NCBI GenBank assembly: GCA_965204505.1
Contig: CBDBFB010000004.1
Location: 107,449 to 171,448, forward strand
Length of the DNA: 64,000 bases
Direction: 5' to 3'
DNA from: an uncultured Candidatus Binatia bacterium
GTDB taxonomy: Bacteria; Desulfobacterota; Binatia; UBA9968; JAJDTQ01
A model generated the notes under the pieces. The model saw only the letters and a list, made by a program, of their open reading frames with translations. It was not told the DNA's origin and did not search any database. Shown here piece by piece: positions 22,596 to 60,237 of the stretch. The translations under genes and the position numbers were made by a program. Positions within the stretch are counted from its first letter, which is position 1, and the number at the start of each line of letters is the position of its first letter.

Positions 22596-22603
22596 GTCCC
22601 GGC

Positions 22604-28751: not shown

Positions 28752-31700
28752 GTGCCGCGGTTCGCGGCAACGGAGATGATGGATCACGTGGCGGGAACGA
28801 ACAAGAAGCTGACAGCCGCAATCGAGGCGTATCTCACCGACCTCGGACGGGTACGCGCATCGGGCGGCGCGACCGGGGAGCGATCAATCTATGGGCCGCT
28901 TGCCAATCTCCTTAACGCTGTCGGAGGCGCGCTCAAGCCGTCGGTGTTCTGTGTGGGCGAGTTGGCCGATCAGGGCGCAGGGCATCCCGACTTCGGCCTT
29001 TACGCGGTGAGCCAGGTGCAGAAGGGTCGACCAAAGGGCGGCCAGGTTCCAGAGCGTGGCGTAGTCGAGGTGAAGGCCCCCGATGACGACGCTTGGCTCA
29101 CGGCGGCGGGCGATCAAGTCAGCCGGTACTGGAAGCGCTACCGTTCGGTGCTGGTGACGAATACGCGGGACTTCGTGTTGGTGGGCGAAGACGGGGCAGG
29201 CCGTCTCGAGAAGCTGGAAACGTTCCGGCTGGCGGATAGCTTGGAGGACTTCTACCGCCAGTTGGAGAAGCCGCGTATCTTCGCTCGTAATGTTGGCCTG
29301 GGCCTCGGCGAATATCTTTGCCGCGCACTCTCATATCAAGCCGCTCTTTCGGAGCCCAAGGACTTGGCTTGGCTGCTCGCTTCCTATGCGCGCGACGGGC
29401 TGGGGCGCGTCGAGGCGACGGGTGATTCGCCATCGCTCAGGGTGGTGCGCTCGGCCCTGGAGGAAGCCTTAGGCGTTCACTTCGAGGGCGAGAAGGGCAA
29501 GCGCTTCTTCCATTCAACGCTGGTGCAGACACTTTTCTATGGCGTCTTTTCTGCCTGGGTCCTGTGGTCGCGCAGTTTCAAGTCCGACAGCGGGGCGCAT
29601 TTCGAGGGCGGCTACCGCCCCAAGCAGTTCAGTTGGCGCGAGGCGGGCTGGCATCTTCGAGCGCCGGTTCTGCGGGTGCTGTTCCAGCAGATATCCGATC
29701 CGGTGCAACTGCAATCCCTCGGTCTCGTCGAGGTATTGGACTGGACCGCCGGAGCGCTTGACCGTGTGGATCGAACGGCCTTCTTCTCCCGATTCAACGA
29801 AGGCGAGGCGGTGCCGTACTTCTATGAACCGTTTCTCGAAGCCTTCGACCCCGATCTCAGGAAACAATTGGGTGTCTGGTATACCCCGACGGATGTGGTG
29901 CGTTACATGGTCACCCGCGTAGACAGGGCGCTTAAGGACGACCTCGGTATCGCAGGGGGATTGGCCGCGGAGAACGTCTACGTCCTCGATCCTTGCTGCG
30001 GTACCGGCGCCTATCTGGCCGAAGTACTGCGACGCATCGCGGCTAATCTTGACGGACAGGGATTTGGGGCCCTGGCGGGTGCTCGGCTGAAGCAGGCGGC
30101 ATTGGGCCGTGTGTTCGGCTTCGAGATCATGCCGGCTCCGTTCGTCGTTGCCCATTTGCAGGTCGGGCTGACCATGCAAGACCTTGACGCGCCGATGGCG
30201 GACGATGGGACCGAACGGGCAGGGGTGTTCCTCACAAATGCGCTGACGGGGTGGGAGCCGAGGACGACCAAGCCCTTGCCATTCCCGGAACTCGAAGAAG
30301 AACGCGACCGGGCGGACCGCGTGAAGCGGGAGACGCCGATCCTCGTGATCCTCGGCAATCCGCCCTACAATGGCTTCGCAGGCATGGCGGTAGACGAAGA
30401 AAGGGAATTGTCGGAGTCGTACCGGTCGACAAACCAGGTCAGAAAACCAGAGGGGCAAGGGCTGAATGATCCCTATGTCCGCTTCTTCCGCATGGCGGAA
30501 CGGCGTATCACGGAAAAGACCGGTCGGGGCGTGCTCTGCTTCATTTCCAACTACTCATGGCTCGACGGCCTGTCCTTCACGGGGATGCGAGAGCGCTATC
30601 TGGAGGCGTTTGACTCGATCCGCATCGACTGCCTGAACGGTGACAAGTACAAAACCGGCAAGGTCGCACCGGACGGCTCACCCGACCCAAGCATCTTCTC
30701 GACGGAGGGCGATCCGGTCGGCATCCAGGTCGGAACCGCCATCACGACTCTGGTGCGCAAAGCGGACCACAAACCCGCCGATACGGTGGGCCTCCGGAAC
30801 CTCTGGGGCCAGGCGAAACCGGCGGAGCTGAACGAGACAGCCGAAGCGGAAGCGGATAGCCTGTACGAGCAGATCGAGCCTGTCCTGCCGCTTGGTCTTC
30901 CCTTCGTGCCAACCACGGTGAGCGGCGACTGGTTCGACTGGCCCACGTTGCCGGATCTGTTCTTGAAGTCGTTTCCTGGCGTCAAGACTAGTCGTGACGG
31001 GTTCCTCGTAGATGTGGACCTCGACCGACTGCGGGCACGCGTCGCCGATTATTTCGACGCGGCGTTGAGCCATGAGGAGATTGCGTCACGCTATCCGACA
31101 GTGATGAAGACTTCGGCGCGATTCGACGCCCGCTCTGTGCGTGACGCGTTGTTGAAACGTGGCGGGCCGGACGAAGGCGGGTTCATCCGCTTCACGTATC
31201 GGCCGTTCGACAACCGCTGGCTCTATTGGGAGGAAGATAGTCGACTACTTGACCGGCCACGACCCGACTACAGGCCGCATGTCTTCGAGGAGAATTTGTG
31301 GCTGTCAGCCGCGCAGCATCTCCGGAAGGGGGAAGAGGACCCGCAAGCGTGTTCTACGACGCACATGAGTTGTCTGCATCTGATCGAGCGTACTGCATTG
31401 ATGTTCCCGGCATGGCTCTGCGCCGACGCTCTGGATACGACGGGGGTCAAGGGCCGCCCAAATCTGTCTGATCCGGCTCAGTTCTACCTGCAGCGTATCG
31501 GCGCGAGCGTCGAGGATTTGTTCCATCATGTTCTTGCCACGTTGCACGACCCGGTCTACCGAGCGACTAACGCAGGCGCCTTGAGGATGGAATGGCCCCG
31601 GATACCCCTTCCGGGCTGGCGCAATGGCGGCACCGTGAAAGGGGCGGCAAATATGCTCGCAGAAACCGCGACACGGGGTCGCGACTTGGCACAGATGCTG

Positions 31701-32171
31701 GACCCGATGCGCCCCGTTCCGGGCGTCACAGAGGCTCCGCTACGGCCGGAGATCGCCTCCCTTGCAGTTCCCGCCACGATCAACGGGCAAAACATGAAGC
31801 CAGTTGACTTCTCAGTGACGGCTGGCTGGGGACATTTCGGAACGGGCCAAGCCATCATGCCCGGCCAGGGCCAAGCTGTTGAGCGTGCCTTGGCGCCCGA
31901 GGAACGCGCGGCAATGTCAGACAGCTTGTCCGTTCTGGGCAATACGACCTTCGACGTGTACCTGAACGGCAACGCCTTCTGGCGCAATGTTCCCGCCGCC
32001 GTCTGGAACTACAAGCTCGGTGGCTACCAAGTGCTTAAGAAATGGCTCTCCTACCGCGAGCACCCCATCCTCGACCGGCCGCTCGACCATGAAGAAGTTC
32101 GCCACTTCACGGATACCGCCCGACGTATCGGGGCGATCATATTGGAGACCGCGCCGAAGAAGCGGCCTTAA
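28752..32171 (+). CDS. single-chain Type IIL/IIG (MmeI-like) restriction-modification enzyme: PD-ExK nuclease plus gamma-class N6-adenine MTase plus TRD
   Basis: N-terminal PD...EVK (HPDFGLY...VVEVKAPDD). MTase motifs VWYTPTDVVRYMV, LDPCCGTGAYL and GNPPYNGF. C-terminal WNYKLGGYQVLKKWLSYRE signature. Confidence 0.85.
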   Translation: MPRFAATEMMDHVAGTNKKLTAAIEAYLTDLGRVRASGGATGERSIYGPLANLLNAVGGALKPSVFCVGELADQGAGHPDFGLYAVSQVQKGRPKGGQVPERGVVEVKAPDDDAWLTAAGDQVSRYWKRYRSVLVTNTRDFVLVGEDGAGRLEKLETFRLADSLEDFYRQLEKPRIFARNVGLGLGEYLCRALSYQAALSEPKDLAWLLASYARDGLGRVEATGDSPSLRVVRSALEEALGVHFEGEKGKRFFHSTLVQTLFYGVFSAWVLWSRSFKSDSGAHFEGGYRPKQFSWREAGWHLRAPVLRVLFQQISDPVQLQSLGLVEVLDWTAGALDRVDRTAFFSRFNEGEAVPYFYEPFLEAFDPDLRKQLGVWYTPTDVVRYMVTRVDRALKDDLGIAGGLAAENVYVLDPCCGTGAYLAEVLRRIAANLDGQGFGALAGARLKQAALGRVFGFEIMPAPFVVAHLQVGLTMQDLDAPMADDGTERAGVFLTNALTGWEPRTTKPLPFPELEEERDRADRVKRETPILVILGNPPYNGFAGMAVDEERELSESYRSTNQVRKPEGQGLNDPYVRFFRMAERRITEKTGRGVLCFISNYSWLDGLSFTGMRERYLEAFDSIRIDCLNGDKYKTGKVAPDGSPDPSIFSTEGDPVGIQVGTAITTLVRKADHKPADTVGLRNLWGQAKPAELNETAEAEADSLYEQIEPVLPLGLPFVPTTVSGDWFDWPTLPDLFLKSFPGVKTSRDGFLVDVDLDRLRARVADYFDAALSHEEIASRYPTVMKTSARFDARSVRDALLKRGGPDEGGFIRFTYRPFDNRWLYWEEDSRLLDRPRPDYRPHVFEENLWLSAAQHLRKGEEDPQACSTTHMSCLHLIERTALMFPAWLCADALDTTGVKGRPNLSDPAQFYLQRIGASVEDLFHHVLATLHDPVYRATNAGALRMEWPRIPLPGWRNGGTVKGAANMLAETATRGRDLAQMLDPMRPVPGVTEAPLRPEIASLAVPATINGQNMKPVDFSVTAGWGHFGTGQAIMPGQGQAVERALAPEERAAMSDSLSVLGNTTFDVYLNGNAFWRNVPAAVWNYKLGGYQVLKKWLSYREHPILDRPLDHEEVRHFTDTARRIGAIILETAPKKRP

Positions 32172-32174
32172 CGC

Positions 32175-32999
32175 TTGCCAGCGGAAGCGCTCGACTGGCT
32201 TGTACCGTCCATGCTTGCTCAAGAATCGTACGCAACCAGTAGGCTCGATCGGCTGTTCATCGCCGAACTGCGGGCGTTTCACTCCAACTTCGACGTGGCC
32301 CCAGTGCCTGTCGAGCAGGAATTGAGGGCTGGAGCGATTGGCTGGATCGCGACCTTCGCACCGAAGGCGATCAGCCTCCGCGGGAAGGAAGAGCTTCGGA
32401 AAGTTTCAACCGCGGCCCGAGACCGAGCCGACTTCAGGCATTTCGGCTGGTACCGAGTTCCCTATCTGGATGTGGCCCAGTATTCTTTGGACGGTGACAA
32501 CTCGAACTTGTCGACCGTGATCGACAATATAGATCACCACAACAGTTCCTTGCGCTCCTCCCTACATGGACCATTGGCATTGATTGCCCCGAGGCTCAGC
32601 CTTGACGACAATAACCTTTCCGGCCGGATGGAAAGCTGCTTCAAATCCAGTTCCATGTATAACGATAGCCTAATGTGCATATTTGTGGCCCTCAACGATA
32701 ACCAAGAACGAAAGCTGGCCTTGATTAGGAAATGGCGGACGATGAACAGCCTCAGCCCACAAGACATCAAGCTTCTGGATCTCATCCTTACCGGCGGACT
32801 CATATCGAACGCGTTGATTGCGGACGGGTTTTCTGCGGTTCTTCGATACATTTTTTGCCGTTTTCTGGATCCCGAAGTATCCAAAGCCCTGCCCGGACAG
32901 CAACTCGATTTACTCCCCGACAGCGAGGAGTGCCCAGTTTGGCAAGAAATGGCAGCTCACCCCTTGGTAGGCTCGTTGGTTTCGGCGAAAAGGACGTGA
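32175..32999 (+). CDS. hypothetical protein immediately downstream of the RM enzyme (candidate accessory or partner)
   Basis: Starts 4 nt after the RM stop. 274 aa at ~50% GC. It ends within a 21-bp tandem duplication tttcggcgaaaaggacgtgac x2 at 32980-33021. Confidence 0.5.
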   Translation: MPAEALDWLVPSMLAQESYATSRLDRLFIAELRAFHSNFDVAPVPVEQELRAGAIGWIATFAPKAISLRGKEELRKVSTAARDRADFRHFGWYRVPYLDVAQYSLDGDNSNLSTVIDNIDHHNSSLRSSLHGPLALIAPRLSLDDNNLSGRMESCFKSSSMYNDSLMCIFVALNDNQERKLALIRKWRTMNSLSPQDIKLLDLILTGGLISNALIADGFSAVLRYIFCRFLDPEVSKALPGQQLDLLPDSEECPVWQEMAAHPLVGSLVSAKRT

Positions 33000-33281
33000 C
33001 TTTCGGCGAAAAGGACGTGACAAGGGCAGGTTTTACAGTACATACCGATCCCTTTGGAGTCACGGAGACGCTGTCCGCCTCAAGCCTTGCGGCAATGTCA
33101 GGAAGGGGCGAGTGTCAAAGTGTTGACCTTTGCGTTGGTTGCTGAAGTCGGCGACCAGCATTAACGTTCGCCCACGCGATTGGACCGTTGGGCAGTCTGA
33201 AGGAATTGGCCTGAACCCTCCGACCAAAGGTTTCTGCGGCTGACTGGCCACCGCCGACCCTCCGGCATGCCGTTGATTCAA

Positions 33282-34586
33282 TCAATAGCTGAATCTGTAC
33301 TGACGCGGCAGAACAATCCTGTGACCGGAACGTATCTCGGCGGACGGTCTCTTCTGGCCGCCACTCGGCGTCAACACCTCGATTCCCCGTTCCGTTTCTA
33401 ACGCCTTAAGGACAGTAGTGAACTGTGCCTGCGTCGCGGCCATGTCATCGGCCAACAAAGCAAGGAGCGCGTCCACTGTAGGTTCCGAACCTGGATCGAA
33501 CTGTGTCAACCGACAAGGCAAGTCCGCCATCAGGGCGTTGTGAATTCGCCCTTCGTCCGACTCGTCGAAGCCGAAATCAATAGGAATCTGATTCTCCCAG
33601 TTTGGCCTGAAACCAAGCATGTCCAGTCCCGCCTCACCTTGGGTCACGGATGCGTTCTTTATCGCCCAGTGTGCCTCGTTCATCACCAACCGGGACCGTG
33701 GAAGCTTGGAGTAGTGAACCAACCACATATCACGGCCCGCGTCCTCGGAACGGAGAAAGAACCGAGACGCAAATTTCGACCCCACATTCTCTTTGAACAA
33801 TTTGCCCAAGAGCCGGCCCGCAAAATATCGGCCGGCCTGGGCGTCCCGTTCCTTCAGAAGCGCCTGAAGGTGATCGGCGGTGAGTTCCGAAGGAGCCATC
33901 GCCGCCAGAAAGCGGGCGCTATCATTCATGTAGTCGTAAATTGCACCGAAATTGTAAGTTACAATAACCTCGGATCTGGGCAGGGATTGATAGATCAAGC
34001 GGACATCACGGTTGGGCGCATCGGTGTAGCCGCACTGATCCAAGAGGAAGATCGATCGGCCGGCAGAACTCCACGCCGAAATCTGCCGAATGATTGTTGG
34101 AAGTGCGTCCGAGGAAGCGGACTGCTGGATGGTAATGGAGTCGCGCAGGTGTTGACGGAGCTGGGCTGCACCGATGGTAGCCCTTAGGTAGTCGATTGCA
34201 TTCGAGTCATTGTCGACGAAAAAGAACTTGGCCTCGATTCTGAGTGGCTTACGACGGCCGGCATTCACCCGTGCTTCGGCGCGTCTTACAGCATCGATCA
34301 TGACCAACGGCGAGCCGGGTCGGAAGGCCCCCTCACCACGAAACAAGCCGCCGCCTGCGAAGGAATCGACCAGCGCAATACGAAGGACGTCCATTTGCGG
34401 GACAGCGCAGACCACATCGAAATAGCGGTCAAGATAGGCCTCCAGCAGACGCAACTTAGCGTCCGTATGGGATTGGATGGTTGGCGGCTCAGCGCCGGGC
34501 CGCCAAATAAATTGGCTGTTCGCAGGCGCCATCTTCCTGGCCTTTTTCGAAACCGTATGGGAAACCGTCGTGCAGTTCGCCATCAA
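33282..34586 (-). CDS. TcmP-like (three-Cys-motif partner) protein, paired with a Gp37/Gp68 protein
   Basis: 434 aa. Lies immediately downstream of, and overlapping, a DUF5131 gene, which is the arrangement described for TcmP. The family call is from context and size, and the start is possibly at Met 34532. Confidence 0.45.
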   Translation of the reverse strand: MMANCTTVSHTVSKKARKMAPANSQFIWRPGAEPPTIQSHTDAKLRLLEAYLDRYFDVVCAVPQMDVLRIALVDSFAGGGLFRGEGAFRPGSPLVMIDAVRRAEARVNAGRRKPLRIEAKFFFVDNDSNAIDYLRATIGAAQLRQHLRDSITIQQSASSDALPTIIRQISAWSSAGRSIFLLDQCGYTDAPNRDVRLIYQSLPRSEVIVTYNFGAIYDYMNDSARFLAAMAPSELTADHLQALLKERDAQAGRYFAGRLLGKLFKENVGSKFASRFFLRSEDAGRDMWLVHYSKLPRSRLVMNEAHWAIKNASVTQGEAGLDMLGFRPNWENQIPIDFGFDESDEGRIHNALMADLPCRLTQFDPGSEPTVDALLALLADDMAATQAQFTTVLKALETERGIEVLTPSGGQKRPSAEIRSGHRIVLPRQYRFSY

Positions 34587-35271
34587 GGATACGTCCTCCC
34601 GCTTTCGATGTTCTCCCTCCCCACTGCTTAAAGAAGAACTCTACTCCCTGATGTGCACACTGGTCGCGTACCTCGCGGGCCCAGTTCACATCCATTGGGC
34701 GGGCACCAGGCCCGCTCTCGCCGCCAACGATCACCCAAGCAATACCAGACAGGTCTATGGGGCCGATCTTCCCGAGAAGCGGCTCGACCGATAGAAACCG
34801 TATGGTTGCATTGGCGCGTTTGAGGTGTGCTACGCGTCCGAGCCTATGTGAATCCTCAACGGAGACTCCAATCCAGATGTGCCGCGGTACTGGGTTGTCT
34901 GGGTACCGTCGGTTGATGTAGTTGGCCAGCCTGGAACTGCGCTTGGTAAGGACCTGAAAGATATGCTGGTTGGCCCTCTCCATCACATCGAAGACCTGAT
35001 CAAGGTACGCGTTGGGAACTCTCTTGTGGAATACATCGCTCATGGAGTTGACGAAGATCATCCGGGAACGCCGCCAGTGCACCGGTTGCAATAGCCGTTC
35101 TGGTCGCAAGGTCAGGTCGAACCCGCGCTCATAGGGATGGCCCGGGACTCCACGGAAGCGCTCAGCGAAACGCTCGGCATAGCAATGATCGCAGCCAGGG
35201 CCAATTTTGGTGCAACCGGTTACAGGATTCCACGTAGCATCAGCCCACTCTATTGCAGTCTTGTCAGCCAT
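34489..35271 (-). CDS. phage Gp37/Gp68-family (DUF5131) protein
   Basis: N-terminus ...TAIEWADATWNPVTGCTKIGPGCDHCYAERFAERF is the family signature (IeWtd.TWNp..GC...S.GC..CYA). Confidence 0.8.
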   Translation of the reverse strand: MADKTAIEWADATWNPVTGCTKIGPGCDHCYAERFAERFRGVPGHPYERGFDLTLRPERLLQPVHWRRSRMIFVNSMSDVFHKRVPNAYLDQVFDVMERANQHIFQVLTKRSSRLANYINRRYPDNPVPRHIWIGVSVEDSHRLGRVAHLKRANATIRFLSVEPLLGKIGPIDLSGIAWVIVGGESGPGARPMDVNWAREVRDQCAHQGVEFFFKQWGGRTSKAGGRILDGELHDGFPYGFEKGQEDGACEQPIYLAARR

Positions 35272-35404
35272 GGCCCCTCGAAAATCGAAGCTGCTACAGT
35301 GCCGTCCGCCACGTAGTCTGTAGGTTGTCCTCTCTGGGTAGAGAAAAGCCTGAGTTCGGGCGTGATCGACGGAGCAACGGTATTTGACGAACAGCGATGA
35401 AGGT

Positions 35405-35692
35405 CTACGCGGCAGCGATTCTTCCTACCTTGATTGTCTGTTCCAGGTGCCGCGACCGTGCAAGGTCGAAGGCCAACTGCATGCCAAGCCAAGTCTCGGG
35501 CGTGGAGCCAAACGCCTTCGACAGGCGGTAGGCCATTTCGATCGAAACGGAAGCCTTCTCGTTGACCAGATTGGAAAGAGTCTGACGTCCGATACCGAGC
35601 CGCTTTGCGCCTTCGGTCACGGACAAACCCAGCGGTTTCAGGCAGTCTTCACGCACGATGGCGCCGGGATGTACGGGATTATTCATTGTCAC
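35405..35692 (-). CDS. higA: HigA-family antitoxin (XRE HTH)
   Basis: ...HPGAIVREDCLKPLGLSVTEGAKRLGIGRQTLSNLVNEKASVS... is the HigA/VapI pattern. Confidence 0.85.
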   Translation of the reverse strand: MTMNNPVHPGAIVREDCLKPLGLSVTEGAKRLGIGRQTLSNLVNEKASVSIEMAYRLSKAFGSTPETWLGMQLAFDLARSRHLEQTIKVGRIAAA

Positions 35693-35703
35693 GGGGGCAC
35701 CTC

Positions 35704-35982
35704 CTAGTGGTAGTCCAGATAATCGACGTCCACGGCGTGGCCATCTTCGAACCGAAATGTTACCCGCCAGTTGCCTGAGACGGACACCGCATGGTGTCTC
35801 CGCATGCGGCCCTTGAGGGGGTGCAGTCGAAAGCCTGGAATATCCATTCCCTCCGGACCAGTGGAGCGGTCTAGGGCCGTCAGGATGCGCAAGAGTTTTT
35901 GCACATGCTCCTGAGCCAACTTCGGCGAACGGCCCTGCTCATAGAGCTCTCTCAAGCCACGATGCCGCAATTTCCTGATCAC
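35704..35982 (-). CDS. higB: HigB-family toxin (RelE/ParE superfamily), GTG start
   Basis: VIRKLRHRGLRELYEQGRSPKL...IPGFRLHPLKGRMRRHHAVSVSGNWRVTFRFEDGHAVDVDYLDYH. A TTGACG-15-TATACA promoter-like sequence lies just upstream. Confidence 0.8.
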   Translation of the reverse strand: MIRKLRHRGLRELYEQGRSPKLAQEHVQKLLRILTALDRSTGPEGMDIPGFRLHPLKGRMRRHHAVSVSGNWRVTFRFEDGHAVDVDYLDYH

Positions 35983-36181
35983 TTGTCTAGTGTATAGTGT
36001 CGATTGACATCCGTCAATAATCAGGAAGAGGAAGATGTACGATGGAACGGTTTGTGTCGCTATCGGCAACCCGTGGATCAGGCAGGGCATCAAGGGCCGG
36101 CGCGTACGCCGTGAGTACAGCGTGCGCGTCCATGACCACGCGCGGGCACGCGGCGCAGCCATGATTGATGAGATGTCGGGA

Positions 36182-37320
36182 TCAACGTTCCGTCAGTTCG
36201 TCGATGCGGTCTGCGATCCGCTGAGCGGGCTCGCGAAGCTTCTCCACGGTCCAGTCAGCGGCGTACCCCTCGGTCACGTCATTGGGCCGGGCGTGGTTCA
36301 CCAGCCGCTTCGTCAGCGACCGCGGTAGCATCAGCTCACGCTCCGCCACGGTGATGAAGGCGTTCCGCAACCCATGGAACCAGAACTTCTCGCCGCCCGT
36401 TCGCCCAATGTCCTCGTAGTGCGCCTGAAGCTCCTCCAAGTGCCCCGACCTGCTCGACCGCGAAGGGAACACCCACCCGCGTAGCTCCTCTGGAACGGCC
36501 TCCCTCGCGGCCAGCCGCCGCGCCAGGATCTCACCAAGCTGGCGCGTCACCGGCAGCTCCAATGGAACACCGGTCTTGGTCTCCTCCACACGAAACAGCT
36601 CCTTCCCCAGGTCCACGTCCTCCCAACGGAGCGCCAGCACCTCTCCCAGCCGCATCCCCGTGTAGAGCCCGAACAGGAACGCGTCCCGGCGCACCGGGTC
36701 TCCCACTGCCGCCTCGATCCCTCTTCGCCAGCACGGCAGCACCTCGGCCGGAGACGAGATCCGCTTCCTCCTCTTGCGGTGGTACCGTCCCCCGCCTGCA
36801 AGCCACTGCTCCACAGGGTTCCGGAGACCCTCGTGGTCCACACAGGGCCTTCGGTACACCGAGCGCAGGAACGACAGGCACTGGTTGGCGGGCATCTCGC
36901 CGTGGCGCTCGGTCAGGACCCGGAAGCGGCCCTCCACGTCCCGGCGGTTGATGTTGTCCAGACGCCGCGAGAGCCAGTCGCCGAGATACAGGGCCGCGTA
37001 CCGCCGATAGCCCCGCTCCGTGCTGGCCGCGCGGCCGTGGCCGGACTCCATGTAGTCCTTGCACGCCTCCCTCAGCGTAGGCACCGAACGCGCCTCCGCC
37101 CGCTCGTCCGCGGGATCTCGCCTGCGGCCACGCGCCCCAGCAGCTCCTGCGCCTGGCGCCGGGCCTGGTCCGGGGCGACACGGCCGAAACGGCCCACCAC
37201 CACGCGCTTGTTGGGCGCCTTGCGCCCGCCGTTGCCAGAGCGGTAGTTTACAACAAAAGCCTTGGCGCCCGAGGGATGGACACGCACACCGAAGCCCGAA
37301 AGCTCACGGTTCCAGAACAC
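36182..37320 (-). pseudogene. tyrosine integrase, frameshifted (arm-binding N-domain and catalytic domain in different frames)
   Basis: The DUF4102-like N-piece (FWNRELSGFGVRVHPSGAKAFVV...) ends at 37072. The catalytic piece (...HGLRNAF...) starts in another frame at about 37084. The upstream N-terminus is also out of frame. Confidence 0.7.
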
Positions 37321-37404
37321 CGCCTCCCGGTCTCCCGCCGGGAGCGCTTCGACTGTTCGCCTGGAGATCGCTCATCTCCCTTTCCCTTCGCTACTTCGGC
37401 AGGA

Positions 37405-37820
37405 TGTCCGCTCCGATGCTCTCCACAACTCTGGCCGTCGAGGCCTGCACAGAGTCCCACCCCAAGTGTGCGTACCGGGCCGTCGTCTGCACCTACAAGC
37501 CATTTCGAATCGATCAGAAAGAGCACAACAGGAAGATAGACGACGAAATCGTTGCCGAGATCAGGCGCTCTCGTCTCGTCGTAGCCGATTTCACTCAAGG
37601 AGACGACGGAGCGCGCGGAGGTGTGTACTACGAGGCCGGTTTTGCACACGGACTCAACATTCCGGTGATCTTTACTTGCCGAAAGGACGTATTGAACAAG
37701 ATCCATTTCGACACTCGCCAGTACAACCATATTGTCTGGGAAACACCAGTCGAATTGAGACAACGCCTTGCAGCGCGTATTTCGGCTGAAATCGGAGATG
37801 GACCCGGCAAAGAGACGTAA
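37405..37820 (+). CDS. TIR-like / nucleoside 2-deoxyribosyltransferase-like domain protein
   Basis: ...RSRLVVADFTQGDDGARGGVYYEAGFAHGLNIPVIFTCRKDV...IHFDTRQYNHIVW... is the characteristic Rossmann-like signature of this fold. The start codon is uncertain. Confidence 0.45.
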
Positions 37821-37904
37821 TGGCGTACGTCGGGCTGATCCCCACTTGACGGGCGGCGGCAGTCTTCAAGAAAGGTACGCCGGCTCTTGGGCGTATCGGC
37901 TCGG

Positions 37905-38718
37905 CTATTCGACGTCGGAATGCCCTCGCGGCACCACCACGAGATTCGCGGTAACTTCCGCCACGCCGGGGACGGCCTTGACGATTGCCACCACGCCTTC
38001 CACTGTAACCGACGAGGAAACCATGCCGGACACCGTCACCGTGCCGTTGTGCGCCTTCACGTCGACGGGCAGTTCACGGTACGGGTCGGACTGAAGCAGG
38101 GCCGCCTGGGTCTTCCTGGCCAGCGCGAGGTCTTCGAAGGCTTGCTTGGAGGCCTCTGTCTCGGCAAACGCCGCGAGCCGGGCGGTGGCGCCGATGATCT
38201 CGCTGGCCGCGTCCACGCCCATGCCGAGATTGAGCACCAGGTGGTACCGGGTCGGGTCCTGCCAGTCGTGGCCGAACAGGGACATGAGCCGCCGGCTGCG
38301 GGCACGGTCGGCGTGCTCGAGCTGTCTGCGGATGGCGCCTTCGTCCTGCGCGGGGCGCAACCGGAGCAGGTCGATGCGCAGGTCCATGGAGCCGGTCAGG
38401 AAGACCTTGAGCACATGGGAGACTCCGGGAAGGAGCTCGTGTCCCACGTGGCCGTGGTAGACCATCGGGCCGGCCTGAGCCATCTCGCACATGGCGGCCT
38501 GGAGCGCGATGCGGTAGGGCCGCAAGTCCTGCAGCCACTGCTCCCACCAGTGCGGCGCCTTCTCCGTGATGTCGTCGAGCTTGGCGCGCGGCACCCCGTA
38601 ATGCGGCAGCGTGGCCGCCAGGTCCTGCCGTCCCACGCACTTGTAGCCGAGGGACCGCGCGACCCGGTTGGCAACTTCCTCCGCCCCGTGGATTCCTTCG
38701 TAGATCATGATGATCGCC
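37905..38718 (-). CDS. cytidylate-kinase-like domain plus BON-domain protein
   Basis: N-terminal MAIIMIYEGIHGAEEVANRVARSLGY is P-loop-kinase-like. The C-terminal ...VDVKAHNGTVTVSGMVSSSVTVEGVVAIVKAVPGVAEVTANLVV is a BON domain. Confidence 0.55.
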
Positions 38719-38948
38719 ATGACGAATCCTCCTTCCCAAGAGGGACGCGACACCAGACCATGCTTGACCTCGCACATTCAGCATACTGCTGGGACGGCGA
38801 ATGGGCAATGAAGAGAGTTTCCAATGAGACATGAGGCTGACGGAGGAGGCGGAATCCAACGAGAGAATGAGCCCGAAGTCTGTGGGTGGGGGAGAACGGG
38901 AGGATGATCGTGGCAATGAGTCTTGAGAGGGTTACGCACGGTCCGGCG

Positions 38949-40116
38949 TCAGGCCGCCGTGGTAGCCGGGGCTTCGTCCCCGCCGTCCACCTGGTATCCC
39001 TTGAGGATGTCGGCTGCGATGCTGTCGGATATACGGACGGCGGACTCGCGCACCGACTCCCGGGCAAGGTGGGCGTACCGCGCGGTGGTCTCCACCTTCG
39101 AGTGACCGAGGAGCTTCCCGATCATGGTCAGCCCCTCGCCGAGCGCCAACGCCCGCGACGCGAACGAGTGGCGGCAGTCATGAAGCCGCACGTCCTCGAG
39201 CTTTGCGCTCCTGCGGACCCGGTCCCAGGGGTCGTTCAGGTTCCGCAGGTGCGTGCCCGGCTTCTTCCCCGGAATCACGTGCGGGTTCCCCTCCACCCGC
39301 GGGATGCCGGCGAGCACCCGGGCCGCTTCCGGCGAAAGCGGCGCCACCCGCGCGCCGGTCTTGGAGTCCTCGAGCTTGAGCTCGCGCGCATCGAGGTCCA
39401 CGTCCCGCCAGCGGAGCGTCAGCACCTCGTTCCGCCGCAACCCCGTGAGCAACAGCAGCCGGATCGCCGCCACCGCGTGGACCGACAATCCCTTCCCGGC
39501 CTCTGCCTCCGCCAGCGCCCGCCCCAGGCGCCGGAACTCCTCCTCGCCAAGAAAACGCTCGCGCCCGCGCTCGCGGTTCTTCACCAACAGCCGGCACGGG
39601 TTGCTCGCCTCCGGCAGCTCCCCCCGGTCCTCCGCCGAGTTCCAGATGCGCGACAGCGCCTCCACCGTCCGGTTCGCCATCGACGGCGTCCCGCGCATCG
39701 AGTGGTGCAGTTCGCTCACCCGCCCGTGATCCACCGCCAGAGCCGGAACCCTGCCGAGCGCGGGCAGCAGGTGCTTGCGGACGATCAGCGTGTACATCTC
39801 CACGGTCCTGGGCTTGCACCGCACCCCGACATGCTCCTCAAGCCACCGGCGCGCAATCTCCCCCACCGTGGGGCCCTCGGCCAGGGCCGCCGCCGGCTCC
39901 GCCAGTGGCTCCTCCCCCGCCTTGATCCGCGCGATGATCAGTGCCGCCCGCCTGCGCGCTTCCTCCGCCGTCACGATCCCGTGCCGGCCCACCGTCACCC
40001 GCTTCGCCGCCTTGCCGTTCGCGCGGGTCTGCACCACGTAGTACTTGCTCCCCGACGGATAGGCGCGGACCCCGAACCCCAGAAGATCACGATCCTAGAA
40101 GACGGCGTCCTTGCCG
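38949..40116 (-). CDS. tyrosine integrase with an in-frame TAG at codon 27 of the arm-binding domain (possible pseudogene)
   Basis: MSAKSDQKLTKRTIGALAATGKDAVF-TAG-DRDLLGFGVRAYPSGSKYYVVQ..., where W (TGG) is expected. The catalytic domain is intact (...HDCRHSFAS...LGHSKVETTARY). Confidence 0.7.
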
Positions 40117-40315
40117 GTTGCCGCCAAGGCGCCGATAGTTCGTTTGGTGAGTTTCTGATCGCTCTTCGCCGACATCGCGGGACTCCGTTTTTTCCGCTAC
40201 CAGGCTGGCATTCGTCCCGGTCATGCGGCGATCTCGCGATCGGGGCAGCGGCGTTTACACGTTTTCCCATGCCAGGCACTGACGGGCTCGGTGTTTCCTT
40301 CAGCGCCACCTGGAG

Positions 40316-41092
40316 GTGTCACTGCTGGACGAGGCGCCGCCGGGCCGGACGCCAGTGCGCACGGTGGTGGTGCAGGAGAGGCAACGGCAAGAGGTCTACG
40401 AGCGGGTCCGCGCCACGGTAACGGATATACGCCAAGCCTACCTCGTGTATCCACTGGTGGAGGAGTCCGAGAAAATGCCGATGGCGGCGGCCGAGACCAT
40501 GGCGCGGGAACTGTCCCGGAGCGCCATGCAGGGACTTCGCCTGGGCTTGGTCCATGGTCAGATGCCCGCTGCCGAGCGAGACCAGGTGATGCGGTGCTTC
40601 CGGCAGGGCGAGGTCCAGGTGCTGGTGGCCACCACCGTCATCGAGGTCGGCATCGACGTCCCAGGTGCCACCCTCATGGTCGTTGAGGACGCCGAGCGTT
40701 TCGGGCTTGCACAGTTGCGCCAGCTCCGGGGCAGGGTAGGGCGGGCCAGCGACGAATCCCACTGCGTCCTGATCCACTACGGCACCCGGGACGGCGACTC
40801 CCGCTGCCGGCTGGAGTCACTGGAGCGGTCGGCCGACGGGTTCGAGGTGGCCGAGGCCGACCTGCGGTTCCGCGGCGCGGGAGAGATCCTCGGCCCCCGC
40901 CAAGCCGGCTTCCAGGGATTCCGTGTCGCGCACCTCGTGCACGACCACGAGGTCCTTCAGGCGGCGCGCCGCGAGGCCCGTGACTGGCTCTCACATGATC
41001 GGCGACTCCGGACCGAGACGTCCCGGCGAATCCGGGAAGTGCGGTGGCAGCGCTGGGACGACGGCCTGCAGTTGGGGGCGTGGGCCGACTGA
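40316..41092 (+). pseudogene. recG: recG 3' fragment (helicase motifs IV-VI and C-terminal domain), 5'-truncated at the element junction
   Basis: ...SLLDEAPPGRTPVRT...LVATTVIEVGIDVP...AQLRQLRGRVGR... with an upstream in-frame TGA at 40280. Motifs I-III are absent. Confidence 0.7.
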
Positions 41093-41102
41093 GCGGGATA
41101 GT

Positions 41103-43046
41103 TCAAATCCCTGTTCCTGCGCGGCCACCAAGGTGTGTGGCGAGGAAGGTTTCCAGACGCCGTGCGAACTCGACGCGGTTCTCCTCCCGACGTATGAGGT
41201 GCCCGTCGTCCGGGAACACCAGATATTCGACCGGGATGTCCTTCTCGCGAAGCTTCGCAACGAATCGGTCCGAGTGTTCCTTGGAAATCGTCCTGTCCTC
41301 GGTGCCGTGGACAATCAACAAAGGCCGTTCGACGCGGTGGGCATAGGTGATGGGGGATCGATCCGTGAGCTCCTCTTTCGCGCCAGTGGCGTCCAGAGCG
41401 TTGGCGAAGCGGTTCCACCAAGCCCCCAATCTCCCACCGCGGGAAAGGGTACTAGCCAGAGCAGCCATATCGGAAAAACCCGCCACGCTGACGCCGGCAG
41501 CGAACTTCCTTGGCGTCCTGGTCATCGCGACGAGTGTTGCGTAACCGCCGTAACTGTGGCCGAGAATGGCGATTTTCACGGGATCCGCATATCCCTCCGC
41601 GATGGCCCAATCCACCGCGTCGATCAAGTCATCTTGCATCTTCCCTCCCAACTCCCCGTACCCTTTCTCCATGAAGGATTTTCCGAAACCGCGCGATCCC
41701 CTGTAGTTGACCTCGAGCACGGCGTAGCCTCGGTTGGCCAGGAATTGGGTTTCCCGATCGAATCTCCAATCGTCCCGCATCCAGGGACCGCCGTGGACCT
41801 TGACGACCAACGGCAAGCGTTTGCCGTCGGCGCCCTTCGGAAGAGTCAGATAACCGCTGATTGAGAGCCCGTCCCGCGCATGGAAGCCGATGGGACGAGT
41901 GGGCGACAGAATATTCTCGTATCCCCTTAGCGGATGGCGGGCGAGGAGTTCCTTCGTTCCAGACCGTCGATCGACGAGGTAGGTGGATGGGCCGGACCGG
42001 TCCGTTTCCGTGCGGATCGCGAGGCGTGTCTGGTCCATACTGCCGTTCACGATGACATTGGCCATCGGTCCCGATCCCAATATCTTCTCCAGATCGTCCC
42101 GTAGCCTGCGGTCAAGGTAATGTTGGCGGGGGAGGGCATCGTGATATCGGATTACCACGGGTTTGTACGCCAGGATGTCCATAAAGTAGCCGGATATATC
42201 CACATTCGGCCTTTCGAAGAGCACTTCCTGTTCGCCCGTGTCCAGATCCAGCATCATGAGCACGGTTTTGTCCAGCCCCCCATTCGTCAGCATGTAGATT
42301 TTGGAACTCTCGTGGGGGATGTACTGGGCGATGTCGATGATGTCTGTGTATTCGCCGGTCAACAGCGGTGACCGGCCGGCCTCGACGCCCTTTCGGACAC
42401 TCCATGCCCCAGCGGTACCACGTTGGAGCAGGCCCAAGATGTCGCCTCTGTCGCTTACAATCCAACGTGAAGTGTCTCCGTGGTTGATTGCCCGCAACGT
42501 GTGCATACCAGTCCTCAGGTCGATTTCGTATAGGTCGTAGACCTCGCGGGTGCGTAGATTCGCCTCCACCAACACTGAATCGGGTTTGGCTGGCGGGAGC
42601 AGAATGGACCGGATGTTTACCCCTTCGAAGGGCAGGAGGTCGCGGGGCTGCTTCTGGGGGGAGTTCGTGTCGGACAAAAACGGGTGGATGTTTATTCGGG
42701 GCCTAACGATGGCGGACAATAGCAGGTGCCTGCTGTCGAGTGCCCACTGGAACGTGAGGATCCGCACGCGATGATTCATCGTGACCGTATGACCGTTTTC
42801 CAGCATCCGAACGCGGAGCGTGGGTCTGCCTTTAATGCGTTCTGTCCAGGCTAGCCTTGTTCCGTCGGGAGAAAGCCGGTGTCCCCGGCTCTCGTTGCCG
42901 CCGGCATAGAACTCGCTTGCGGGAATCAAAGGAGGCAAGTCCGCCTCGCGAAGAGACGGATGAGTAGCCGAGATTTCCCCTGCGTCACCCTTGGAAGAGG
43001 TTGTGATACACAGAGTCAGGAGCAAGACAGCCGCGAGTTGCTTCAT
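41103..43046 (-). CDS. secreted S9-family serine peptidase (prolyl oligopeptidase / DPP-like)
   Basis: Signal peptide MKQLAAVLLLTLCITTSS. Beta-propeller N-domain. GHSYGGYAT nucleophile elbow and a C-terminal hydrolase domain. Confidence 0.85.
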   Translation of the reverse strand: MKQLAAVLLLTLCITTSSKGDAGEISATHPSLREADLPPLIPASEFYAGGNESRGHRLSPDGTRLAWTERIKGRPTLRVRMLENGHTVTMNHRVRILTFQWALDSRHLLLSAIVRPRINIHPFLSDTNSPQKQPRDLLPFEGVNIRSILLPPAKPDSVLVEANLRTREVYDLYEIDLRTGMHTLRAINHGDTSRWIVSDRGDILGLLQRGTAGAWSVRKGVEAGRSPLLTGEYTDIIDIAQYIPHESSKIYMLTNGGLDKTVLMMLDLDTGEQEVLFERPNVDISGYFMDILAYKPVVIRYHDALPRQHYLDRRLRDDLEKILGSGPMANVIVNGSMDQTRLAIRTETDRSGPSTYLVDRRSGTKELLARHPLRGYENILSPTRPIGFHARDGLSISGYLTLPKGADGKRLPLVVKVHGGPWMRDDWRFDRETQFLANRGYAVLEVNYRGSRGFGKSFMEKGYGELGGKMQDDLIDAVDWAIAEGYADPVKIAILGHSYGGYATLVAMTRTPRKFAAGVSVAGFSDMAALASTLSRGGRLGAWWNRFANALDATGAKEELTDRSPITYAHRVERPLLIVHGTEDRTISKEHSDRFVAKLREKDIPVEYLVFPDDGHLIRREENRVEFARRLETFLATHLGGRAGTGI

Positions 43047-43053
43047 GGTCGAC

Positions 43054-43830
43054 CTACACTTTTGGCTTGGTCGGGGTCGCATTGCGTGTTCCGCTGAGAA
43101 AAATCGTACTTCCGAATACGCCCCCGGCGAGATCGCTGAGCAGGAAAGTCGCGGTCGCGGCCACGTTGCGCGTGGGAAGAGTCTGGTCGGCGCGCGACTG
43201 CGTGGAGCTCCCTAGAGCCTCCTGGTTTCCGGAAGTAGCGTGGGATCCGGTGTTCCTTGAAATCGGGGCCGGCCGCAGGATGTTCGCGGTAACGTTGTCC
43301 TTGGCAACGTTCACTGCGATGGACTCTAACCATGCGGACAGCGCGGCAGTCGTGACGGAGTGAAGTTCTCGTTCTAAACGGGTTCCAGCGGCAGGCCACG
43401 GGATCAGCCAGAGAATTCGGCCCCATTGCCGGTCCCGCATGCCGGGCTGAAGCGTTTCGGTCACCACCTTGAAGCGAAGGAACCCCCTGTCGAGTAGGGT
43501 TTGCCAACCCCCCGGCGGCAATACGTTCCTGTCCTCCAATACCGGACGCCGAGAGACCCCGAACAATATGTCGATTGCTCCGAAATCGTCGACGATGCGC
43601 TTGATGAGGACGTTGGTCGATTGCGCGTCCCAGGCGTCGATCCTGTAGCCCTTGGCCCTCACGCCGCTGTTCTCCGCCGCCTCTGAAGCAACCTTCTGCG
43701 CCGCCCACTTCTTGCGGGCGCAGACCGCTACCTCCGTCCCCTCGGCCGCCAGTGCCCCTGCCACGGCGCGGCCAATGCCCCTGGAGCCCCCGAATACCAG
43801 CGCCCGCCTGCCCTTGATGCCGAGATCCAT
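43054..43830 (-). CDS. SDR-family oxidoreductase
   Basis: TGGSRGIG Rossmann motif. Confidence 0.8.
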   Translation of the reverse strand: MDLGIKGRRALVFGGSRGIGRAVAGALAAEGTEVAVCARKKWAAQKVASEAAENSGVRAKGYRIDAWDAQSTNVLIKRIVDDFGAIDILFGVSRRPVLEDRNVLPPGGWQTLLDRGFLRFKVVTETLQPGMRDRQWGRILWLIPWPAAGTRLERELHSVTTAALSAWLESIAVNVAKDNVTANILRPAPISRNTGSHATSGNQEALGSSTQSRADQTLPTRNVAATATFLLSDLAGGVFGSTIFLSGTRNATPTKPKV

Positions 43831-43878
43831 GACAACTTGAGAGTTTAGCTTCGGGCTTGAGAAGCGTCCAAAGCTTGA

Positions 43879-44853
43879 CTACGCGTTCCGTTCGTCACGC
43901 TGCACCATGGCCCTCAGGCTGATGGGGTGTTCCGGGTTCAACTCCCTGAAGCCGGACATGGAAAGCCACACCCTCAAGAGGTGGCGACCCGGTCCATTGC
44001 CGTCCGCGGAGAACTGTGTCCGGGTATGCAAGACCACGTGGTTGTTGAAGTACTCGATGTCGCCCGGTTTGAGGTCTACTCTTAGGGAAACACGGTCGGC
44101 CACATCGTTGAATGCCGCCAGCGCATTGTTCTGAGCCGGAGTCAGCTCCGGAACTCCGGGAAGGCCACGGGCCCGCTTGATGTGGACTCTGTAGGCGCAG
44201 GCATTGAAGAGACCGTTCGTGACGTTCAGGAAGGGCAGGCGGGTCCACTGGCCACCGTGGTCGGGATGCGTTCTGTGCAGCGCCATGTGGAAGGGTTGGG
44301 TGAGGACTCGCAACTGGTCGGGGCATTCCTCTCTCATGACATTGTAGACGGTGACGGCGCTGGCGAACTTGCGGGTTCCGCCCTCGGAGGCGGTATTAAC
44401 GCACAGGAAGCCGATGACGTCTTCGAGGTCGGCGTGGAAGGGGAGCTCTGCGGTGGCGCGAAAACCGTAGCGTCCTTTGCCCTTTCCCTGGGACTCAGCG
44501 CGCACATGGGCGAGCTTGACGCCTCCGGGCTGGTCCATGGGGGTGCCGAGTTGGCGGCTCAGGGCCATGAAGGCCGGCGCCACGCCTTCCTTGCCGAGTT
44601 CCTTGACGGGCAGGCCCCGCAGGATGCGGAAGCCTAAACCCGATTTGAGCTCGCGCACGGTCTTCTCGATCTCGGGCGTGAGAACGGGCAGAGGAGGCGT
44701 CTCCCGTGGTTCTTCGGTCCCTCTGGTTTCCCTCACCACAGCCAGCAACTCCGCCAACTCCCGTCCGGTGAAAGTGTGGCGCCAGGCTTCGGTACCGGCG
44801 AGGTCGTCGGGCTTCCATGCCGCGGGGTCCAGTGCTTTGGGCAGTTGTTCCAT
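43879..44853 (-). CDS. TauD/TfdA-family Fe(II)/2-oxoglutarate dioxygenase
   Basis: HADLED-type facial triad context (...LPFHADLEDVIGF...) and the overall TauD-like pattern. Confidence 0.7.
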   Translation of the reverse strand: MEQLPKALDPAAWKPDDLAGTEAWRHTFTGRELAELLAVVRETRGTEEPRETPPLPVLTPEIEKTVRELKSGLGFRILRGLPVKELGKEGVAPAFMALSRQLGTPMDQPGGVKLAHVRAESQGKGKGRYGFRATAELPFHADLEDVIGFLCVNTASEGGTRKFASAVTVYNVMREECPDQLRVLTQPFHMALHRTHPDHGGQWTRLPFLNVTNGLFNACAYRVHIKRARGLPGVPELTPAQNNALAAFNDVADRVSLRVDLKPGDIEYFNNHVVLHTRTQFSADGNGPGRHLLRVWLSMSGFRELNPEHPISLRAMVQRDERNA

Positions 44854-44895
44854 AATACCGCTCCTGTAGGGACAGCCTCGATTGGTTCGGTCGTT

Positions 44896-46203
44896 TTACT
44901 TCTCCCGGAATGCATCCTGCCTATAACCTCGTAGCGGCTGCAACACGTACTCGATGAGGCGCTGCTTGCCGAGTATGACCGCAGCTTCGGCGGACATGCC
45001 GGGCAGGAGCTCGATCTTTCGGCCCTCGATTTCCATGTAGGTCTGGTCAAGATCGATGAGGGCCTTGAACATGGGGCCGGCCGCTACGCCGGGGGGCGGA
45101 GCCCCTGGACCGCCGGTCTGTGCGCCAGCGTTCACCGCGTCCCTGCCGATGTGGCTGACGGTGCCCTCAATGGCGCCATAGCGTCGGAAGTCGAAGGTGG
45201 CGACCTTGAGGGTGACCCTCTGGCCGGGCTTGATGAACCCGATGTCGGCGTTGGCAACAAGAGCCTCCACCCGAAGACCGGCATCCCTTGGCACGATGAC
45301 CATGAGGCGGGCGCCGGGCTCCACCATGCCGGCTTCGGTGTGGACGGCCAAGTCCTGAACCACCCCGTCCACCGGCGAAAGCAACGTGTGCCGGGTGCGG
45401 TGCTCCCGGGCCTGGCGGATGTCCTGGCGCAGGACGATCATCCTCTCCCGGACGGTGGCGAGGGTGGAGCGGCGCTCCCGGTAGAACTCCGAGACGGTTC
45501 CTTCCTGCTGGGCCTTGAGCGCGGCCAGGGAGGCCCTGGCCTGTACCAGCTCCTGCTTTCGGAGCGCCATGTTGCCTTCGAGCTCCACCAGTCGCTCCTG
45601 CTCGTCGAACAGGTCGAGCCTGGAGCTGTGGTTCTTGCGGTAGAGCTTCTCCTGCATGGCGGTGCGCTCGCGCAGGATGGGCAGGAGCTTCTCGTACTTG
45701 GCAATGCCCGCCCCCAGGGTGCGAAGCTGAGCCCGGCGTTCCCGGAGCAGGCCGTCCAGCTCATGGAGCCGTGCGCGGTGAGCAGCGATCTGGTCCTTCA
45801 GGAGCTTCCGGTTGATGGCCACCATCTCCTTCGGGGCTTCCCGAGGGGCTCGGAAAGGCTTGTCCCCTCGCCATCCCAGGAGGGCTTCGAGCCGGGCGGC
45901 CTCCACCGCCTTGATGCCCAGCTCCGAGGTGTGCTTGGCGATCTCGGCCTCCACCAGGGTGGTGTCGAACTCGATCAGCACCTGCCCCTTCCTGACCGCG
46001 CTCCCTTCCTCCACGGCAATACGCTTGATCTTCCCCTGCTCGAACGACCGGATGGTCTTCACCTGCCCCTTGGGGACGATGCGTCCCGGGGCCACCGCGG
46101 AGAGCTCCACCGCGGCCATGGAAGCCCACGTGAGGGTCGCCGCCAGGAAGACGCAAAGCGCCACCAGCAGCAGGATATCCGCACGACGCCTCGGTCTATC
46201 CAT
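44896..46203 (-). CDS. HlyD-family membrane fusion (type I secretion adaptor) protein
   Basis: N-terminal TM anchor, biotinyl-lipoyl-like KGQVLIEFD, a long coiled-coil, and C-terminal beta-barrel motifs. Confidence 0.85.
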   Translation of the reverse strand: MDRPRRRADILLLVALCVFLAATLTWASMAAVELSAVAPGRIVPKGQVKTIRSFEQGKIKRIAVEEGSAVRKGQVLIEFDTTLVEAEIAKHTSELGIKAVEAARLEALLGWRGDKPFRAPREAPKEMVAINRKLLKDQIAAHRARLHELDGLLRERRAQLRTLGAGIAKYEKLLPILRERTAMQEKLYRKNHSSRLDLFDEQERLVELEGNMALRKQELVQARASLAALKAQQEGTVSEFYRERRSTLATVRERMIVLRQDIRQAREHRTRHTLLSPVDGVVQDLAVHTEAGMVEPGARLMVIVPRDAGLRVEALVANADIGFIKPGQRVTLKVATFDFRRYGAIEGTVSHIGRDAVNAGAQTGGPGAPPPGVAAGPMFKALIDLDQTYMEIEGRKIELLPGMSAEAAVILGKQRLIEYVLQPLRGYRQDAFREK

Positions 46204-54965: not shown

Positions 54966-55296
54966 TCTACGAGAGGGTTTGCTGGATGAGATTCCGAGGC
55001 CTGAGGGCACCTGCCGGTTCTTTGATCGCGCCCGATTCGGTTACAGACGTACCATCTGTCAACCAGGATCAGGGAGGCGATCATGGGTTCATCTCACAAG
55101 GAACCAAGGCAACTGGTATTGTTCGGTTCCGCGAGGCGGGACGGTTCCGGGAACACGCCGCCATGGCGGAGTCTCCCGGCTCAGACACGGCAGAAGGCCG
55201 TCGGTCTGCTGGCAAGGTTGTTCATCGAACATTGCCGGACGCCAGCGACGGACGTGACCGCACAGACCGCCGGTCCTCGACCAAGGGAGGACAGTG

Positions 55297-59946: not shown

Positions 59947-60237
59947 CAGGTCGCCTCCAGACGTGCCCGGCGCCTGATGCCAATGCACGATCCATAGCAC
60001 CAGGAAACCGCGGCGATGTCAAGGTTTTGTAGCAAACGATCAACTATGGATCCGACTCTCTCCACATAAGACACCTGTCGGCACCCTACGGGGACTCTTT
60101 AGCGTTTCTCACGTGTTTCCCATCCTTCTTCATCGCTACGGCGTCGGCGGCGCATCTTGACACCGCGGGGTCTTTTTGTTGCTCTACGGGCGGAGTCCCC
60201 GCGAGGAAACTCAACGAGTCATGCATCCGCGACTACC

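Follow-up and report, generated by a model that had tools for sequence, protein, structure and literature searches.

The DNA examined here is a 64,000-nt stretch (hereafter the window) from the metagenome assembly of a sponge-symbiont genome, and our subject is the point, at position 40305, where mobile DNA meets what is left of recG, the gene for a widely conserved DNA-repair helicase. To the left of this point lie two genes for P4-type tyrosine integrases, integrase 1 and integrase 2, the latter next to the junction; to its right lies the 3' part of recG, followed by a gene of the S9 prolyl-oligopeptidase family (coordinates in Table 1). The relatives used for comparison were sponge-associated 'Candidatus Binatia' and Deltaproteobacteria genomes and one contig of a Geodia barretti assembly. 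For recG, intactness and substitutions were compared across 17 orthologues from species-representative genomes, and the window was compared by blastn with the first 21 orthologous loci retrieved.

The recG remnant and its decay

Blastn similarity to the 21 recG loci extends from 40305-40310 to 41092-41097, with identities of 79-84%. Just before 'ACCTGGAGGTG' the window and the relatives part; the position is ~codon 478, past helicase motif III and short of motif IV. The open reading frame (ORF) that remains, 40316-41092, represents the last ~262 codons of a gene of ~720-740 codons, about 65% of which is gone; its one possible start codon is the GTG at 40316, and an in-frame TGA stands at 40280-40282. 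Pfam recognised Helicase_C (1.5e-20) and RecG_dom3_C (9e-11) in this ORF and nothing more, so that the second RecA-like domain with motifs IV-VI and the C-terminal RecG domain are kept. The first RecA-like domain (motifs I-III, for ATP binding and hydrolysis) gave no DEAD or ResIII match in the ORF, homology beginning past motif III ('MSATPIPRSL' in relatives), and RecG_wedge, the N-terminal domain for branched-DNA binding, which the relatives carry, was found neither in the ORF nor anywhere in the window. Searches of the window by tblastn returned neither the first 477 codons of recG nor carA/B, lepA/B or the aminotransferase, and a promoter scan of 38800-41300 found no sigma-70-type promoter-like site, and hence none to drive the remnant. 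A reading made from the sequence alone (hereafter the sequence-only reading) had recG begin abruptly near motif IV, with an in-frame stop upstream and the 5' two-thirds of the gene missing here, and all of this is borne out.

In the relatives recG is whole: all 17 representative genomes carry an uninterrupted ORF, 720-795 codons long from the first possible start. The gene order in the listed loci is UDP-glucose dehydrogenase, lepA, lepB, carA, carB and recG, with carB immediately 5' of recG in every locus for which gene calls are listed; beyond recG comes a variable stretch, then the aminotransferase and homoserine dehydrogenase genes. Short 'RecG' proteins of relatives (241-277 aa) were considered as a conserved truncated family, an idea rejected since their loci showed complete genes that low-coverage frameshift errors or eukaryote-style gene calling had divided. 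One member of a relative's RecG cluster (P0121, 879 aa) has an internal duplication of ~140 residues across motif I, probably an assembly artefact. The S9 peptidase gene to the right of the window's remnant matches a gene downstream of recG in the relative L018 (11609-13697; 71% nucleotide and 65% amino-acid identity), and the remnant therefore sits at its ancestral chromosomal position. Position 40305 is accordingly a true boundary, as had been proposed, with mobile DNA to the left and, to the right, the recG remnant and the S9 peptidase synteny seen in L018.

The remnant carries signs of decay. Its motif VI reads QLRQLRGRVGRA in place of the QLHQLRGRVGRG of the relatives, and thereby departs from the 17 orthologues in H-to-R and G-to-A replacements, and nine residues invariant in those orthologues are altered; 16 of the orthologues have 0-4 such changes each, and L018 has 11. 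The mean synonymous distance between remnant and relatives is 0.59 (range 0.47-0.66) against 0.57 among the relatives, and the non-synonymous distance is 0.111 against 0.079. Estimated on terminal branches, the ratio of non-synonymous to synonymous substitution rates (dN/dS) is 0.32 for the remnant, compared with a median of 0.13 for the relatives. In 16 Tajima relative-rate tests, with the most divergent relative, L018, as outgroup, the remnant had 19-28 specific amino-acid changes against 6-13 per orthologue (median ratio 2.6; p<0.05 in 15 of 16), and synonymous changes were balanced between the two. These patterns support the view that recG is non-functional at this locus and under relaxed constraint, and they are typical of a gene that was functional for the greater part of its past and was released from constraint afterwards. 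If dN/dS values of 0.13 and 1 are simply mixed, about the last fifth of the remnant's terminal branch would be neutral. That the frame has stayed open is no evidence of function at such divergence.

Two integrase pseudogenes and a scar

Integrase 1 consists of two overlapping ORFs in different frames (37072-37320 and 36182-37084), the result of a -1 frameshift at ~37117/37116, where 'AAGE' runs into 'DPADE' between the arm-binding domain and the remainder of the protein. Intact homologues from its 90%-identity cluster (P0371 and P0372) read on through this point as 'AAGDDPAGE'. The gene has a further lesion at its start: the ATG at 37375 stands out of frame by one base and overlaps a TGA, owing to the loss of ~17 nt that L023 and L024, two loci of relatives that carry intact integrase pairs, still have. 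In integrase 2, codon 27 is TAG (40097-40095), opposite which L023 and L024 have TGG in their intact homologues; the tryptophan lost is that of a conserved 'FWD' motif in the arm-binding domain. The uninterrupted frame of an active enzyme is thus lacking in both genes. The sequence-only reading had described both integrases as inactivated, the first by a frameshift between its arm-binding and catalytic domains and the second by a TGG to TAG change at codon 27, and the homologues agree with it on each point. It had also located integrase 2 correctly, except that the end it gave, 40116, lies 59 nt short of the start codon, and the gap that it described between integrase 2 and recG exists but measures 129 bp from start codon to junction rather than 200.

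When the stop and the frameshifts were mended in translation, Pfam found the domains of both enzymes: Arm-DNA-bind_3 at 7e-15, spanning the repair site, and Phage_integrase at 2e-15 in integrase 1, and the same two families at 2e-11 and 6e-22 in integrase 2. By inspection, the catalytic motifs of integrase 1 are TGMRLGE, ETKTG, FHGLRNAF, LVNHA and EGYA, and those of integrase 2 are TGLRRNE, DSKTG, LHDCRHSF and LLGHSKVETTARY; integrase 1 retains the full catalytic set of six (R, K, H, R, H, Y), and integrase 2 likewise has its full six. The nearest intact genes are close. Integrase 1 shares 87% nucleotide identity with L025 over 36189-37296, and 38940-40112 of the window shares 94.7% with the intact 408-codon intB of L023.

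The intB-type homologues of integrase 2 in L023 and L024 are the second genes of a two-integrase unit of ~2.8 kb, which comprises a 410-bp leader, intA (393 codons), a gap of ~20 nt and intB (408-410 codons). The two units (L023 4392-7215 and L024 4408-7212) are 88% identical and lie between unrelated genes, both away from recG. A single 90%-identity cluster of the intB-type integrase has 76 member sequences, and a further copy of the family, P0262, is found on the same contig as the window. The unit looks like a multi-copy module in sponge symbionts. Integrase 2 of the window has neither the 410-bp leader nor the intA partner of these closest relatives. The 129-bp spacer between its start codon and the junction was considered as a remnant of either one and rejected, there being no DNA or protein similarity and no integrase remnant in any frame.

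Both integrase genes are mosaic. Near-identity to their closest intact homologues starts at the stretch coding for GFGVR, and the first 25-33 codons come from another family member; the mosaic 5' zones are 37296-37375 in integrase 1 and 40072-40175 in integrase 2. In the latter, neither the first ~33 codons nor the preceding 129 bp are related to those of homologues with 87-92% protein identity, and the unusual N-terminal peptide (VFWDRDLLGFGVRAYP, WDRDLLGFGVRA) had no matches in scans of JGI metagenome contigs. This suggests that recombination among paralogous integrase genes may be frequent at the GFGVR-coding stretch.

Directly upstream of integrase 1, in the place that intA takes in the intA-intB pairs of relatives, lies what remains of an intA-type gene, its final 32 codons, which include the catalytic 'TTARYAHL'; DNA alignment also supports this remnant. 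It meets, head to head, a 5'-truncated fragment that is probably nucleoside 2-deoxyribosyltransferase-like (PF05014, E 1.5e-5, 25.6 bits, under the gathering score). The join is a deletion or illegitimate-recombination scar, and no att (attachment) site. Between the two integrases stands an intact cytidylate-kinase-like gene with a BON domain, in which the third-codon-position GC is 0.86.

Origin and timing of the junction

We consider that the locus is probably the decayed right edge of a mobile block of more than 40 kb that disrupted the chromosomal recG and was then remodelled. The block would be made up of conjugative-element genes and at least two small integrase-bearing islands. An integrase-bearing element would have inserted in or beside recG, and the edge would afterwards have been altered by deletions and by recombination between paralogous integrase genes at the GFGVR-coding stretch. 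The loss of intA and leader from integrase 2, the intA scar and the mosaic 5' ends point to such remodelling, and for this reason the recG junction need not be an att site. It may be the original insertion point or, equally, the end point of a later deletion; on balance a rearrangement scar seems more likely at 40305 than a pristine att site. As neither integrase at this edge works, the block would be unable to excise from this end any longer.

Several points weigh against this account. The other end of the block lies beyond the window, so that direct demonstration of an insertion or of a deletion is not possible, and an integrase gene whose 5' end faces outward, 129 bp from a sharp junction, has the look of an untouched element end. 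Natural variants of integrase 2 that do without intA may exist, given that the integrase-1-type genes of L025-L030 have none. The source is a metagenome assembly, and the relative-rate test presupposes that L018 falls outside the group formed by the window and the other relatives.

It is also possible, if doubtful, that an intact recG lies elsewhere in the genome and that the 3' fragment was left by a duplication or arrived with imported chromosomal DNA, in which case repair would be unimpaired. The intactness of recG in all 17 related species representatives would be expected on this view, as would the outcome of the N-terminal search, in which nearly all of ~70 related protein clusters were near full length; loss of recG would be unusual for the clade, and the source assembly has further contigs. 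The fragment is nevertheless in its ancestral position relative to the S9 peptidase gene, and its synonymous distance to relatives, which is as among the relatives themselves, fits vertical descent. Moreover, a collection of 5.8 billion proteins, which includes proteins of the source contig, held no RecG more than 85% identical across the full length of the fragment. Taken together, the protein searches argue weakly against a recent duplicate and against a 5' half on the same contig, as they would miss a 5' half in fragments or a copy located on a different contig.

Clean site-specific integration, which we regard as improbable, would have split recG in two, with the 5' two-thirds intact at the far left end beyond the window and 40305 as attR. 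The boundary between motifs III and IV is indeed sharp, the right flank is native, and an outward-pointing integrase gene 129 bp from the junction is what many island ends have; a weak residual similarity of ~50-60% over ~30 nt left of the boundary could be a likeness between attP and attB. Yet the junction core is not repeated in the 40 kb to the left, and direct or inverted att-like repeats of the junction in the window are chance-level 10-14-mers at most. The 5' portion of recG, which the sequence-only reading expected elsewhere in the assembly as the other island end, is absent from those 40 kb by tblastn, and among the best 120 matches to the N-terminal 477 residues there was no 5'-only fragment from the source contig (492,384 bp), although a fragmented copy could escape. 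The two examined intact close relatives of integrase 2 occupy unrelated loci, no integrase was found near recG in 22 loci of relatives, the N-terminal peptide of integrase 2 went unmatched in the metagenome contigs, and neither the window nor the surroundings of the related integrase pairs contain a tRNA target. A full-text literature search returned nothing relevant on recG as an integration site or as a symbiont pseudogene. The earlier claim that an island integrated into, or recombined within, recG thus stands as far as the boundary between mobile DNA and recG is concerned; it does not extend to site-specific integration, with no junction repeat in the window and the two examined relatives of integrase 2 away from recG. 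There is only a slim chance that an unrecognised lineage of integrases targets the interior of recG and that 40305 is its true attR, integrase loss having locked the symbiont lineage in a recG-null state; if so, a near-universal branch-migration helicase would have been knocked out naturally in a mobile-element-crowded genome.

An artefact, with a contig chimeric near a multi-copy integrase and base-calling errors for stop and frameshifts, is very unlikely: the genome is a metagenome assembly, the integrase family is multi-copy with P0262 on the same contig, and the recG of several relatives is split by low-coverage frameshift errors on contigs labelled 4x and 13x, but no repeat lies at the recG junction, the stretches that integrases share run to just tens of bases, at least four independent lesions and two more truncated genes fall within 4 kb, and assembly errors would not give the remnant its excess of amino-acid replacements with normal synonymous divergence.

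If the edge of a mobile block did disrupt recG, as we favour, the order of events can be read from the substitutions. The dN/dS values of integrase 1 (0.15) and integrase 2 (0.19) against their nearest intact homologues match that between two intact integrase copies (0.17), and the lesions are therefore recent. Since the recG remnant is under relaxed selection and the integrases are not, the integrases would have died after recG broke, which provides a dated example of this order of events. Loss of the integrases had been taken in the sequence-only reading as domestication of the island. The data do not bear this out: the integrase dN/dS is like that of intact copies, the neighbourhood is full of broken mobile elements, and decay fits better. 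Whether branch migration and repair are impaired, as was also proposed, depends on the absence of an intact recG elsewhere. Should the genome have no other recG, this sponge symbiont would have lost a widely conserved DNA-repair helicase to a mobile element, and a recG-null state would fit symbiont genomes that are eroded by, and then immobilise, their own mobile DNA. For annotation, the three ORFs (integrase 1, integrase 2 and recG) should be flagged as pseudogenes.

Surrounding DNA and comparison with known systems

The DNA to the left of integrase 1 is that of a conjugative or mobilisable element (Table 1). The relaxase expected of an integrative and conjugative element (ICE) is present as TrwC; no type IV secretion or coupling-protein genes were found among the ORFs scanned in the window, past the left end of which the element continues and such genes may lie. 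Genes of defence or addiction type form a run at 21594-23218 and 28752-36162, with GmrSD and a HEPN-like neighbour, the methyltransferase, the TcmP-DUF5131 pair and HigB-HigA. The left group II intron site (13309-16700, minus strand) has two sets of matches to domains 1-4, and its reverse-transcriptase ORF is in two parts (13309-14199, 15620-16381); the site is therefore nested or degraded. At the end of ORF 32175-32999 a 21-nt unit, TTTCGGCGAAAAGGACGTGAC, is exactly duplicated in tandem (32980-33021).

Table 1. Features of the window on either side of the recG junction (positions are those of the window)
Feature	Position	Strand	Basis or remark
Conjugative or mobilisable element DNA	1-36162		Runs past the left window end; Pfam, Rfam
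RadC	2703-3425		
Strawberry-notch-type helicase	4189-8661		
SSB	10187-10648		
IS110	10940-12067		
Toprim/DUF7146 primase	12336-13355		
Group II introns	13.9-16.7 kb		Rfam
YAcAr and DUF4326 genes	left block		
GmrSD	21594-22595		
TrwC relaxase with AAA_30 helicase domain	23711-26656		Pfam 7e-84
Type ISP/MmeI-like methyltransferase	28752-32171		1139 codons
TcmP and DUF5131	33282-35271		
HigBA	35405-36162		
Integrase 1 pseudogene, P4-type tyrosine integrase	36182-37375	minus	Arm-DNA-bind_3 and Phage_integrase
intA-type integrase remnant, last 32 codons ('TTARYAHL...ADILPK', then stop)	37397-37492	minus	tblastn, 66-69% identity to intA residues 358-389 of L023/L024
5'-truncated nucleoside 2-deoxyribosyltransferase-like fragment, probable	37495-37820	plus	PF05014 profile positions 42-98 of 117
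Cytidylate-kinase-like and BON domain gene, intact	37905-38777	minus	Cytidylate_kin2 1.4e-21, BON 1.9e-9
Integrase 2 pseudogene, P4-type tyrosine integrase	38949-40175	minus	ATG 40175-40173, stop 38951-38949
Spacer from integrase 2 start codon to recG junction	40176-40304		129 bp
recG 3' remnant, ~codons 478-740	40305-41092	plus	blastn boundary, Pfam; ORF 40316-41092
S9 prolyl-oligopeptidase-family gene, native flank	41103-43082	minus	Peptidase_S9 6e-54

Farther to the right of the S9 peptidase gene come an SDR gene, a TauD gene, a cluster of the type that makes ribosomally synthesised and post-translationally modified peptides (RiPPs), IS110, a group II intron, three hydrolase genes and MgtE. 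The RiPP-type cluster (43054-50115, minus strand) includes an MbnB/TglH/ChrH-family enzyme (49228-50115), an ABC exporter (46196-48517), an HlyD-type adaptor (44896-46203), a TauD-family dioxygenase and an SDR. The group II intron on this side (53010-54970, plus strand) looks complete, with a 458-codon reverse transcriptase-maturase at 53442-54818. In two relatives an apolipoprotein-like repeat gene directly follows recG (L018 10994-11502; L020 11195-11437); its homologue in the window lies 18 kb off on the opposite strand (59482-60000, minus), which hints at a further rearrangement downstream of recG. An intergenic repeat of ~100 nt occurs at 58185-58349 of the window and in the relatives' loci L003 (2962-3051 and 5022-5138), L015 (3413-3601), L023 (4422-4526) and L024 (4439-4534), with 83-94% identity in L003, L023 and L024 and 68% in L015, and the copies of L023 and L024 include the hairpin TTTTTCGTTGTCGGC/GCCGACGGCGAAAAA. 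It matched no Rfam family at gathering score, and it may be an element resembling repetitive extragenic palindromes or miniature inverted-repeat transposable elements (REP/MITE-like) or a structured RNA.

Some elements need more than one tyrosine recombinase, among them Tn554-type elements, RIT trios and GInts (PMC3414803, PMC5385486). The two-integrase module of the relatives, with its integrase-2 type gene, recalls these (PMC3414803, PMC5385486), with no family membership claimed, and it is of a different type from the BIM and RIT elements of PMC3414803. It differs from Tn554-type elements, RIT trios and GInts in that its enzymes are P4-type with arm-binding domains and its genes number two, not three or four; the copies in the window are also without a partner.

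The window itself resembles the islands and ICEs of P4-type (Arm-DNA-bind_3/DUF4102) integrases. As in those, arm-binding and catalytic domains and six catalytic residues are found in both integrases, an integrase stands at the element edge with its 5' end outward, and the adjoining DNA carries relaxase, primase, SSB, toxin-antitoxin and defence genes. Such elements normally occupy tRNA or tmRNA genes, or else the very 3' or 5' terminus of a protein gene, and the target is regenerated; here mobile DNA meets recG midway along the gene, which is left unrestored. No flanking direct repeat was found within the window, beyond which the other end of the block lies, and both integrases are dead.

Gene-interrupting excisable elements, such as skin in sigK of Bacillus subtilis, the nifD, fdxN and hupL elements of Anabaena and the phage 'regulatory switches' in comK or mutL, keep both halves of the gene and a working recombinase, and excision rebuilds the gene. 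The recG locus shares with them a coding sequence that harbours a recombinase-bearing element, whose recombinase gene lies outermost, beside one half of the interrupted gene. It departs from them in that its recombinases are inactive, the other half of recG is not within 40 kb, and the half that was kept is gaining damaging substitutions. A lone 3' piece of a housekeeping gene that borders an integrated element also recalls e14 and phage 21 in icd of Escherichia coli, where the element brings a short replacement 3' end (~165 nt) and the gene stays functional; the displaced piece of recG, unlike that of icd, would be ~790 nt. Set beside these systems, the disruption of recG by a mobile element is a known and ordinary kind of event, and no new kind of system.

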